A program made the position numbers. From a virus: a stretch of 44,878 bases of DNA. Every line of letters starts with the position of its first letter. Position 1 is the first letter of the stretch. Shown here in pieces: positions 42,001-44,878 of this stretch. The stretch lies in the UHGV virus genome UHGV-0250870. One strand, given 5' to 3'.

Positions 42001-44878
42001 GTGGTTTTGTCCAGTATTCTCCGGATACAGGGCAGATGGTTGCATCAGGGGATTATCTCGATGTAACCACTCCACAGATTGAGGCTGGTACAGGCGCATC
42101 ATCTTTTATTGTTACGGGGACGGCACCGGTAACGCGGGCAAGCGATATGGTTACAGTTCCGATTAAGAATAATCTTTATAATCTTCCTTTTACGGTTCTT
42201 TGTGAGGTACATAAGAACTGGTATAAAACGCCAAATGCAGCACCGCGTGTTTTTGACACATACCGGCATCAGGCAGATGCGGGGATCGCAATGGGGTTTG
42301 GTTCATCAGGTGGGTACGACGGTTTTCCGTATTGTGATATAGGTGGTTCAGACCGACGAATAAATGAAAATGCCGGGCTGGAAAAAATGCTTATTGGTAT
42401 GCGGGTAAAGTCCGAACGGTCCACATGTGTAGTCAGTAACGGTAAGTTAAGCAGCGAAACTAAAACCAAATGGGAATATATCCGGAGTACAGCAACCATT
42501 CGCATTGGTGGACAAACTACAGCAGGATTACGCCATTTATTTGGGCATGTGAGGAATTTTCGTCTCTGGCATAAAGAGCTAACAGATGCGCAGCTTGGGG
42601 AGGTTGTGGAGTGAGAGATTTCACGTTGCGTTTCAGTGATAAAGCAGATTTCAGGGCATTTCTCAGGAAACTTAACTGGGAAGAGGACGAAGAGCTGCAG
42701 AATGCCGTTCTGGTTGATGAGATTGGTTTTACGTTCAGGGAGACAGATGTTTCTGATGACGGAGAACCAGAATACACGCGAAACGAAGGGTACTTTGTTA
42801 ATATCCGTCTTCTTGACGATGGATTTGATGATTCCGTGTTCCGTGAGTGGGTGGTTACACCAGAGCGCCCGCTCAGGGAGTGGTTTTAAGGATAGCAGAT
42901 GGATATCACGCCGATACTTCATGCAATTTGTGCTGTGGCGGTACAGGGGCTGGTTGGGTGCATTACCGGTGACTGGGCTTATGGTGCAGCCATTGCCTGT
43001 ACGTTTTTTGTTGCCCGCGAATATACCCAGGCAGAATATCGCTGGATTAAGCGTTTTGGTGATGGTCACCGACATAAGATGCCGTGGTGGGGCGGTTTTG
43101 ATCCGCACGCGTGGGATGTGGCAAGCCTGATGGATTTTGTGGTGCCGGTGGTGGCCTGTGCGGGATTGTATGGCTGTATGCTGATTTTTAGCTGAAAAAA
43201 AGGGAGCGCTCAGGCTCCCCAATCGGAAGAAATCGCTTGAAACGACAAGCTTGTTGTTACGCCCTCTAAGAATGTTATATAAAACATGCCATTGCCGTGA
43301 TTATGATCGCGTTTAATAAAGAGGGGGTAGCCCATATTTTGCACGAGCGCGGTTGCATGCTTCATTCACGATGCCGTGTTCTCCGGACATCGGAAATTCT
43401 CTGCAGGTGGATGAGCGATGTTCATAAATGCTGCAGTAGGCATTGACTCCCGGTTGGCCGATCAGGGCCACACAGCGAGGATTTTTCTGGTTAGTGCCCT
43501 GCATGCATTGATGGTAGGGAGAGATTTGTTCTGTCATCGTTACGGGGATGGTGCCGCCAGCATCATCTGTTTCAACCCAGTAAAAAGAGACGCGGAAAAA
43601 TGCACAACAGGCACCACACGTCATACATGGATTAGGATTGTTCATACTTTTATTGCTTTAGCATCAATGAGTTATTATTACAGATGTAACTGCAGAATTA
43701 TGAATGGCATTCTGATATTTCTTTTATCATTTTGTTTACTTTTTATTTACTTTTGTAACTTGAAAAAGTGCTGTCTATGGTCAATTAATTATAATGCAAT
43801 CTATGAATTGCAATCCCATAATTACTTTTAATGGTGACTACTATGACTAAATGTTCAAACCTTAGACAGCAGATTATGGATGATGTACAAAGAAGATATG
43901 GAGAATATCTTGATAAGGATAAAGTATCTTGTATTACAAGCAAGATAGCTGCGGCAGAAAATAAATACCCAGCAAAAACTACATTAGCTAGTGCAATATT
44001 TTATATAAAAGTAGACACTCAGATCACCAGTGAAGGTGGAAAACATTTTTCGGGAAATGCAGGAGGATTATCATCTCCAGGTGGTGGTGTGCTGTTTGGT
44101 GACTTATATACAGATGATTTGGATGATCTGTATACAAATACGGTTAGCTTCCAGATAACAATGACCCCTGTATTTTGTAGTGTATTGTTTTTTGATTCTG
44201 CATCAAATCTTTTGGGGCATTTCGAGGGAGGTGGTGTGTCAACAGTATCGGGTGTTGCAGGTGGCACAGGCTCGTGGTCCTGATGCTTTAAAATATAAAT
44301 AGTGCAAAGTCAGACCCGGCTTTGTATTTATTAATGAATAACATTGTCGGGTCTGTATTAATAAAATAATCTGGTATAGAAAGTCGTTTCTGAGCTATTT
44401 AACAAAACAATGAGCAGAAAATTTTACTGAATAAACCCGGCATTCGAGTTTCTCAGACTTACTGCAGCATTTCATGAACGAACTCTTGCGCAGTATCTTT
44501 GTCTACGGCTCTTAAGATGGTGAGCCCATCATTGGTGAATTTTGACAATCGTGTGTACATTGTACTATCCGTTGTTTATGAAATGATCTATAAGGGAAGG
44601 GATAATCCTCTGCAAAACAAAAAAAGACTTTAAAAAAATCAAGCGGTTAAAAACACAGAGTAACTGTATAAAAAATCATCGCAAAAGGTTGTTTTTCCTT
44701 TTATAAACAGCTTGTTATTACATTTTTTATAATCTACCTGTCTGGTACATGGATATCGATACCACGGCTAAGTACAAATCTGGTGTTACTACCGTAAAAG
44801 ACTCGGTACGACTGGATCCGTGGGTGTTTATGTTCTCCGCAGGATATCGTTTTTAATTTTCTCTGCAAAACCTCTGCA

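Follow-up and report, generated by a model that had tools for sequence, protein, structure and literature searches.

This analysis concerns two small genes that follow the side tail fiber gene, stf, in the viral genome UHGV-0250870, an Escherichia coli lambdoid prophage analyzed here as a stretch of 44,878 nucleotides (the window). Both open reading frames (ORFs), termed ORF92 and ORF98 after the lengths of their products in amino acids (aa), are genuine, conserved genes. The linkage and sequence of ORF92 give good grounds to regard it as a fiber-specific accessory protein of fibers with a GTA-spike-type distal domain, and it is most likely a non-Tfa assembly chaperone or a fiber partner. For ORF98, a predicted three-helix inner-membrane protein from a large and unannotated family, a host-directed or exclusion-type role is the most plausible, judging from where its homologs lie.

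Results

Two Conserved Genes Behind the Side Tail Fiber Gene

Both genes are annotated in RefSeq as hypothetical coding sequences of E. coli ABU 83972 (WP_001204581.1 for ORF92 and WP_000355614.1 for ORF98). They are real because ORF92 matches PHROG 1361 (E = 1.1e-40, residues 1–92 of 92) and ORF98 matches PHROG 1443 (E = 4e-44, residues 1–91 of 97), both families being annotated as "unknown function," because each has hundreds of homologs, and because the ratio of nonsynonymous to synonymous substitution rates (dN/dS) against diverged copies is 0.20–0.35 overall (∼0.3 for ORF92 and 0.20–0.28 for ORF98), which indicates purifying selection. The dN/dS values and homolog numbers rule out spurious or chance ORFs, and the longer ORFs that overlap these genes (42636..43130 on the plus strand and 42269..43222 on the minus strand) have no comparable support from PHROG matches, homologs, or dN/dS.

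The gene order is J, lom, stf, ORF92, and ORF98, followed by a convergent YkgJ-type gene and a VapA-like gene (Table 1). The segment from 42400 to 43400 occurs with 100% identity in E. coli ABU 83972 and numerous further isolates and, when used as a query, was matched in 1870 of 5426 complete E. coli genomes (about one third).

The initial annotation of this DNA had described two unassigned ORFs after stf, the first acidic, overlapping the stf stop, and occupying the slot of a fiber assembly chaperone while being much smaller than lambda Tfa, and the second containing at least two hydrophobic helices. This description holds throughout. Pfam, NCBIfam, and PADLOC return no family at E ≤ 1 for either protein; ORF92 has an isoelectric point of 4.26 and a net charge of −12.5, overlaps stf in the sequence GTGA, has no Caudo_TAP match, and is half the size of Tfa; three helices are predicted in ORF98. 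Neither product showed clear homology to a characterized tail fiber chaperone or to an unrelated housekeeping membrane protein, the suggested structural comparison, run with Foldseek against BFVD, matched only uncharacterized phage proteins, and no structural neighbor of either product was informative.

The Side Tail Fiber and Its Distal Domain

The Stf N-terminus is of the lambda type (PF08400, E = 1e-66, residues 1–131; PDB 9e7m_Ta, E = 2e-47, residues 1–94) and is accompanied by an Ala/Ser-rich shaft. Farther along the protein, residues 329–530 belong to NCBIfam NF048003, GTA_spike_fiber (E = 4e-19; 69.8 bits against a curated cut-off of 36), residues 298–545 match PDB 6tb9, the RcGTA head spike fiber Rcc01080 (E = 5e-4), and a phrog_1419 match spans residues 207–686. 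Since this distal domain is unlike the lambda/T4 fiber tip, a chaperone of the Tfa type is not expected. The RcGTA head spike fiber, prototype of the Stf distal domain, binds capsular polysaccharide (PMC10218006), and its genes in R. capsulatus adjoin capsule genes (PMC5026251).

The core of the GTA-spike-type domain is mosaic: by blastn, a segment of ∼480 bp is exchanged between two homologous flanks in prophages that are otherwise 96–97% identical (loci L011, L012, and L075). In these loci the identity of the C-terminal part of Stf (StfC) falls to 70–72%, ORF92 remains 91–99% identical, and the flanks, ORF92, and ORF98 are retained. The receptor-binding core is thus exchanged, yet the last ∼190 residues of Stf and ORF92 remain together. 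The exchanged block looks like a unit of host-range exchange. The shaft itself contains Ala/Ser/Lys/Thr-rich repeats (…AAKTSETNAK…; window 40900–41280, residues ∼117–245), which generate long spurious ORFs in other frames, and its length depends on the allele, the whole protein having 687 aa here and 790–798 aa in Tritos and L031.

ORF92 and Its Linkage to One Fiber Type

The GTG start of ORF92 (42611–42613) overlaps the TGA stop of stf (42612–42614), and overlaps between this start and the fiber stop also occur in phage 21 (ATGA) and Tritos (TAATG). Every lambdoid locus among 80 IMG/VR loci has an ORF92 homolog (34–100% identical) abutting a phrog_1419-type Stf C-terminus (40–100% identical), and the triad of stf, a 92-aa gene, and a 97-aa gene is shared with phage 21 and PhiR49_2. 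By tblastn, relatives of ORF92 are present in 192 GenBank phage records. In all four of the virulent phages inspected, namely orkinos (Drexlerviridae, the T1-like group), EC100 (T5-like), nimi (Vequintavirus, rV5-like), and JenP2 (Nonagvirus), the ORF92 homolog overlaps the stop of the lateral fiber gene, and a hidden Markov model (HMM) of the distal domain matches these four fibers at their C-terminal end (E = 1e-44 to 1e-53). It is this strict linkage to a single fiber type, together with the start/stop overlap in virulent and temperate phages alike, that argues for an accessory role.

More distant examples point the same way. In Comamonas, Pantoea, and Chelativorans genomes, GTA_spike_fiber proteins occur together with small acidic proteins that have a motif pattern in common with ORF92 (LRF..., VD.IG, G(Y/F)h(V/I)N, and P.R.(W/F)), and when an HMM built from these remote proteins only was run against 10,437 ORFs, its best non-self matches all belonged to the E. 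coli ORF92 family. The Chelativorans gene sits after an ORF98-like gene, and its product has PYRRWL at its end, similar to PLREWF at the C-terminus of ORF92. We regard these remote relationships as suggestive but unproven. Assignment of the C-terminal extension of the Comamonas and Pantoea proteins to DUF4376 was rejected, as Pfam gives it no support.

The AlphaFold2 model of ORF92 (mean predicted local distance difference test, pLDDT, 86.6) is a compact alpha/beta fold of the order beta-alpha-alpha-beta4-alpha, for which no informative neighbor was found in the PDB. The ORF92 alignment contains no hypervariable segment of the kind seen in adhesins.

A possible, though rather unlikely, alternative is that ORF92 is a structural part of the fiber, either a distal cap or adhesin or a branch-point adaptor on which a second, Peptidase_S74-tailed short fiber docks. 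The gp38 of T2/T6-type phages is an adhesin encoded in the chaperone slot. Branched lateral fibers, LtfA/LtfB, are documented in T5-like phages (PMC4728585, PMC10713586). The adaptor role is kept alive by the second fiber gene that directly follows the ORF92 homolog in Tritos, JenP2, EC100, and many prophages; however, the window, phage 21, and nimi have ORF92 and no second fiber gene, and a distal adhesin would be expected to carry the hypervariable segment that ORF92 lacks, rather than to keep 91–99% identity while the receptor-binding core of Stf is exchanged. LtfC, described in the DT57C papers, is a different protein, and its gene is upstream of ltfA.

In many relatives, the short fiber gene, whose product has 234 or 346 aa and includes an intramolecular chaperone domain of the Peptidase_S74 type, is inserted between the ORF92 and ORF98 homologs, for example at 5286–5990 in L031 and 3927–4964 in L004; the window does not have it. 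Additionally, IMGVR_UViG_2724679539_000001 (L028/L046) contains two inverted pairs of S74 short fiber and ORF98 homolog, facing each other ∼5.4 kb apart, which may be a duplicated or invertible fiber segment.

The ORF98 Protein and Its Family

ORF98 starts after a 9-nt gap from the ORF92 stop, and its product has a grand average of hydropathy of 0.52. In the AlphaFold2 model (pLDDT 92.6), helices span residues 4–23, 26–53, and 74–97. The transmembrane segments vary within the family; the loop between helices 2 and 3 (residues 40–73) is almost invariant, with the pattern R-E-x-x-Q-A-E-Y-R-W ... P-W-W-G-G-F-D ... W, and carries R40, E41, Q44, A45, E46, R58, and W72. Across 102 family representatives (26–47% identity), E41 and W72 are invariant, and at least 90% of the sequences conserve H8, R40, Q44, A45, E46, R58, and P83. 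The mean counts of lysine plus arginine (0.6 in the N-tail, 0.1 in the turn, 5.5 in the loop, and 0.6 in the C-tail) suggest a topology with the N-terminus inside, the loop in the cytoplasm, and the C-terminus outside.

An exhaustive profile search placed 461 clusters (at 50% identity) in the ORF98 family, 232 of them at E ≤ 1e-10. All members are stand-alone proteins of ∼90–140 aa, with no fusions, and a scan of one genome per species found them across Alpha-, Beta-, and Gammaproteobacteria. A Pfam scan of the 102 diverse relatives gave no consistent family, with weak matches to a PhoR transmembrane hairpin in seven. Among models of known defense and exclusion systems, PADLOC returned zero families for both ORFs at E ≤ 1, and Pfam returned nothing relevant, the 102 relatives of ORF98 included.

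ORF98 Homologs Behind Receptor-Binding Genes

Genes of the ORF98 family follow receptor-binding genes of at least ten architectures. In lambdoid phages ORF98 lies directly after ORF92 or after the inserted S74 short fiber gene, and is 73–100% identical whatever the allele of Stf (40–100% identical) and ORF92. The homolog in the P22-like phage Gally comes after the tailspike gene, behind a strong terminator (9-bp stem and T-run) and at the classic conversion locus before int; one promoter-like site near it is no better than chance. Elsewhere, the homolog comes after other Tail_spike_N tailspikes, either 1 nt away from them or overlapping them by 4 nt. In the P2-like phage phiHAP-1, it overlaps the tail fiber assembly gene at that gene's stop, and in Leclercia it stands behind a 720-aa fiber. 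Homologs are also found in jumbo Aeromonas phages. In Pantoea, the ORF98-like gene lies between genes for two DUF4376 proteins, and in Comamonas nitrativorans and Pigmentiphaga (L126 and L144, 3821–5673) between an Mtd-like protein and bAvd, that is, inside a diversity-generating retroelement cassette. The combination of fiber gene, ORF92-like gene, and ORF98-like gene is found repeatedly across Alpha-, Beta-, and Gammaproteobacteria.

Two comparisons show how separable the gene is. An Agtrevirus relative has an ORF98 homolog between its tailspike genes, whereas in its close relative pSal-SNUABM-02 the first tailspike is another one and the small gene is missing from that position, which suggests that ORF98 moves with the receptor cassette. 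Furthermore, ORF98 was not found within ∼3.5 kb of the fiber and ORF92 pair in the four inspected virulent coliphages, so it is apparently not needed to make the fiber. ORF98 is often the last gene of predicted prophages.

Chromosomal and Capsule-Locus Copies

Members of the Sphingomonadales have many chromosomal copies of the ORF98 family in the scan of one genome per species, and some of these copies lie within loci for capsule export and synthesis. Outside Escherichia, the commonest among 65 upstream neighbors are Poly_export/SLBB (five) and Capsule_synth/KpsS (four) genes, with one KpsS gene overlapping the ORF98-like start by 4 nt, and the commonest downstream neighbors are PhyH-type dioxygenases (8 of 59). 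A metagenomic relative of ORF98 likewise adjoins Poly_export and Capsule_synth genes.

The 3′ Boundary of the Cassette

DNA homology among lambdoid phages ends at the 3′ end of ORF98 (window 43139–43207), and the content past this point differs: ykgJ and vapA here, sitABCD in phage 21, pinR in Tritos, and dinI in PhiR49_2. The true cargo slot thus appears to start after ORF98. The initial annotation had regarded ORF98 itself as post-fiber cargo, and in this it needs revision, given that ORF98 is the conserved last gene of the fiber cassette in lambdoids, with cargo beginning beyond it, no promoter-like site, and no match to a defense family. The accompanying idea of an exclusion or defense function fares better. 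The separability of ORF98 from the fiber, its position in Gally at the conversion locus behind a terminator, and its being missing from virulent phages with the fiber and ORF92 are the reasons why a host-directed or exclusion-type role remains the most plausible for it.

A convergent terminator had also been proposed directly after ORF98. The hairpin exists, but read on the plus strand it comes after an A-run and has no U-run behind it; its T-run is on the minus strand, so that it is primarily the terminator of the convergent ykgJ-like gene; it may also stop the late transcript. Its folding energy is ordinary (z of −0.8 and 0.0), and it was therefore rejected as a statistically remarkable structure.

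Beyond the boundary, the window encodes a 110-aa protein of the YkgJ type with a CxxCxxCC cysteine cluster (PF03692, E = 6e-12) and a 150-aa VapA/VapB-family protein (Pfam R_equi_Vir, E = 5e-34), whose gene has a GC content of 39% (26% at third codon positions). The latter is in the variable cargo region, and a homolog of a Rhodococcus equi virulence protein is unexpected in E. coli. In ABU 83972, truncated sfa/foc fimbrial genes and iroN come after the ykgJ/vapA region, and the prophage there abuts pathogenicity-island material.

Table 1. Coordinates of genes and signals around the fiber cassette of UHGV-0250870 (positions in the window).
Feature	Position	Strand	Description
J	36040..39732		
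stf, side tail fiber	40551..42614	+	687 aa; N-terminal attachment domain, shaft, distal GTA-head-spike-fiber-type domain, C-terminal beta-rich end
Mosaic segment in stf	41559..42039	+	about residues 337–497, core of the GTA-spike-type domain; by blastn
ORF92 Shine-Dalgarno GGAGG	42599..42603	+	within the stf 3′ end, 7 nt before GTG; read from sequence
ORF92	42611..42889	+	92 aa, GTG start; acidic, soluble; phrog_1361 family
ORF98 Shine-Dalgarno AAGGA	42888..42892	+	overlaps the ORF92 stop, 6 nt before ATG; read from sequence
ORF98	42899..43195	+	98 aa, ATG start; predicted three-helix inner-membrane protein; phrog_1443 family
GC-rich hairpin	43201..43220		6–7 bp; A7 on the plus-strand 5′ side is T7 downstream on the minus strand
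YkgJ-type gene	43313..43645	−	110 aa
VapA-like gene	43831..44283	+	150 aa

Discussion

A Proposed Role for the Cassette

We propose that stf, ORF92, and ORF98 form a conserved side tail fiber cassette that closes the late operon. ORF92 would be a cytoplasmic protein made by translational coupling to Stf, and would help the glycan-binding distal domain of the GTA-spike type to fold or trimerize, or would remain bound to it, thereby acting as a functional analog of lambda Tfa and T4 gp38 with no homology to them. ORF98 would act at the inner membrane, at a step independent of receptor identity, either the display of envelope polysaccharide or the entry of a superinfecting phage, and this action would protect the infected or lysogenic cell as well as the released progeny. 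Phages keep ORF98 directly behind their glycan-reading receptor genes and appear to exchange both together. The polar, near-invariant loop, the copies in capsule loci, and the capsule-binding prototype of the fiber are what lead us to a generic step in the assembly of envelope polysaccharide or, alternatively, to a general barrier against superinfection. A receptor-specific blocker of the Llp/Cor kind was dropped as a candidate for ORF98, because the protein does not co-vary with the receptor-binding protein. Taken as a whole, we hold this explanation to be a serious but tentative one, slightly more doubtful than probable, and the envelope-polysaccharide or superinfection role of ORF98, a best guess from gene neighborhoods and conservation, is its weakest link.

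Several observations weigh against it. For ORF92, adjacency alone does not tell a chaperone from a structural partner, and the link to the Comamonas, Pantoea, and Chelativorans proteins is weak by sequence (hhalign probability 66%, E = 5.6e-5; HMM E = 0.025–1.6). For ORF98, the positive-inside argument is a rule of thumb, given a loop whose overall charge is close to zero; the region between 42300 and 43900 contains no promoter-like site, which bears on expression in a lysogen; and most Sphingomonadales copies are without capsule neighbors, making the capsule association an enrichment, not a rule. The occurrence of ORF98 in some apparently virulent phages (the Agtrevirus relative and the jumbo Aeromonas phages) means that it cannot be purely a lysogeny function. 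Finally, our literature search found no publication on ORF92 or ORF98, and neither gene is mentioned in the BASEL and Klebsiella prophage papers.

A bolder version, which we regard as unlikely in its entirety, would make the ORF98 family a receptor-independent inner-membrane effector that tunes or stops the display of capsule, O-antigen, or enterobacterial common antigen, and at the same time make ORF92 the founding member of a new chaperone class for the commonest distal domain of coliphage lateral fibers. ORF98 might in that case work as a very small enzyme in oligomeric form, or together with enzymes at the cytoplasmic face such as KpsS. Bacteria would use it in their capsule loci, and phages, having captured the gene, would transfer it along with their glycan-binding receptor genes, so that the receptor is no longer presented by infected or lysogenic cells.

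Alternatives for ORF98

It seems quite unlikely that ORF98 is instead a self-contained moron, that is, a superinfection-exclusion or abortive-defense membrane protein expressed from the prophage, for which the post-fiber site is merely convenient. Small inner-membrane exclusion proteins have precedents in T4 Imm and HK97 gp15, and several features of ORF98 fit such a role: the terminator that separates the Gally homolog from the tailspike at a conversion locus before int, the absence from virulent phages with the same fiber and ORF92, and the frequent position as last gene of predicted prophages. However, across lambdoids ORF98 is more conserved than its neighbors and marks the homology boundary, where cargo would be variable. 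In many backbones, virulent ones included, it is also translationally coupled to a receptor-binding gene or directly adjoins one, it co-recurs with fiber and ORF92-like genes in three proteobacterial classes, and it is an ordinary chromosomal gene in Sphingomonadales; the window shows no promoter-like site, and PADLOC and Pfam gave no exclusion-family match.

We have stronger doubts about a role of ORF98 in maturing or assembling receptor-binding proteins at the membrane, such as that of a platform holding or releasing fibers and tailspikes late in infection. ORF98 consistently lies in the same orientation as receptor-binding genes, and its start frequently overlaps their stop, which is compatible with that idea, as is the predicted cytoplasmic location of the conserved loop, on the side where receptor-binding proteins fold. 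Yet four virulent phage families have the fiber and ORF92 pair without ORF98, the close Agtrevirus relative pSal-SNUABM-02 lacks it at the equivalent position, the receptor-binding proteins that precede it are structurally unrelated (beta-helix tailspikes, GTA-type fibers, and Mtd-like proteins), and the family has chromosomal members outside phage contexts as well.

That ORF98 times lysis, as a holin, an antiholin, or otherwise, is very improbable: although ∼100 aa and three hydrophobic helices correspond to a class I holin in size, and one of the 102 family members weakly matches Phage_holin_8 (E = 0.004), ORF98 lies outside any lysis cassette, has no holin Pfam match, contains a conserved loop of 34 residues, lacks a charged tail at its C-terminus (K+R 0.6), is predicted to be N-in/C-out where class I holins are N-out/C-in, and has relatives in Sphingomonadales that are chromosomal and lie in capsule loci.

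Implications

Lateral fibers with the GTA-spike-type domain are variable, glycan-reading determinants of host range in many model and therapeutic coliphages, among them lambda-like, T1-like, T5-like, and rV5-like phages and Queuovirinae. Should these fibers depend on ORF92 as an obligatory helper, it would have to accompany the fiber in fiber swapping and host-range engineering, and would represent chaperones or partners of a new class. Of the two families, it is that of ORF98 that may prove to be new biology. It links phage receptor-binding modules with bacterial capsule loci, and its proposed role in glycan display or exclusion, if true, would be a widespread phenotype conferred on E. coli by prophages. 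ORF98 is furthermore a landmark for annotation, at which the conserved late operon ends and cargo (effector, virulence, and sit genes) begins.

Comparison With Known Systems

ORF92 resembles the Caudo_TAP proteins (lambda Tfa, Mu U, and T4 gp38) in its slot after the fiber gene, its coupling, its small and soluble product, and its co-inheritance with the distal domain of the fiber. It differs in having no match to Caudo_TAP or to any other Pfam, NCBIfam, or named PHROG family at E ≤ 1, in being half the size of Tfa with a compact fold that lacks an informative PDB neighbor, and in serving a distal domain of the GTA-spike type rather than the lambda/T4 type.

Residues 329–530 of Stf belong to the domain family of RcGTA GhsB (Rcc01080; PDB 6tb9; NF048003), whose capsule binding and capsule-gene neighbors parallel the capsule-locus link of the ORF98 family. 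The capsule genes rcc01081-86 are reportedly described in work by Brimacombe from 2013. GhsB sits on the head, whereas the Stf domain is fused to a lambda-type N-terminus and shaft and is on the tail, and no ORF92- or ORF98-like partner of GhsB has been described.

Protection genes linked to receptor genes include llp beside oad in T5 and cor beside the tail genes of phi80 and N15, and gtrABC of P22, oac of Sf6, and neuO of CUS-3 lie after the tailspike gene. Like these, ORF98 encodes a small envelope protein beside a receptor-binding gene and is apparently transferred as part of a cassette. In contrast, those genes are receptor-specific and co-vary with the receptor-binding protein, while ORF98 is ∼76% conserved across fiber and tailspike types, shares no sequence family with them, and is also chromosomal in Alphaproteobacteria. 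ORF98 is likewise similar to T4 Imm, HK97 gp15, and P22 SieA in size, in its predicted inner-membrane location, in being phage-encoded, and in being apparently dispensable for virion assembly; it is not homologous to them, is far more widespread (461 clusters), and has invariant polar residues of an enzyme-like character.

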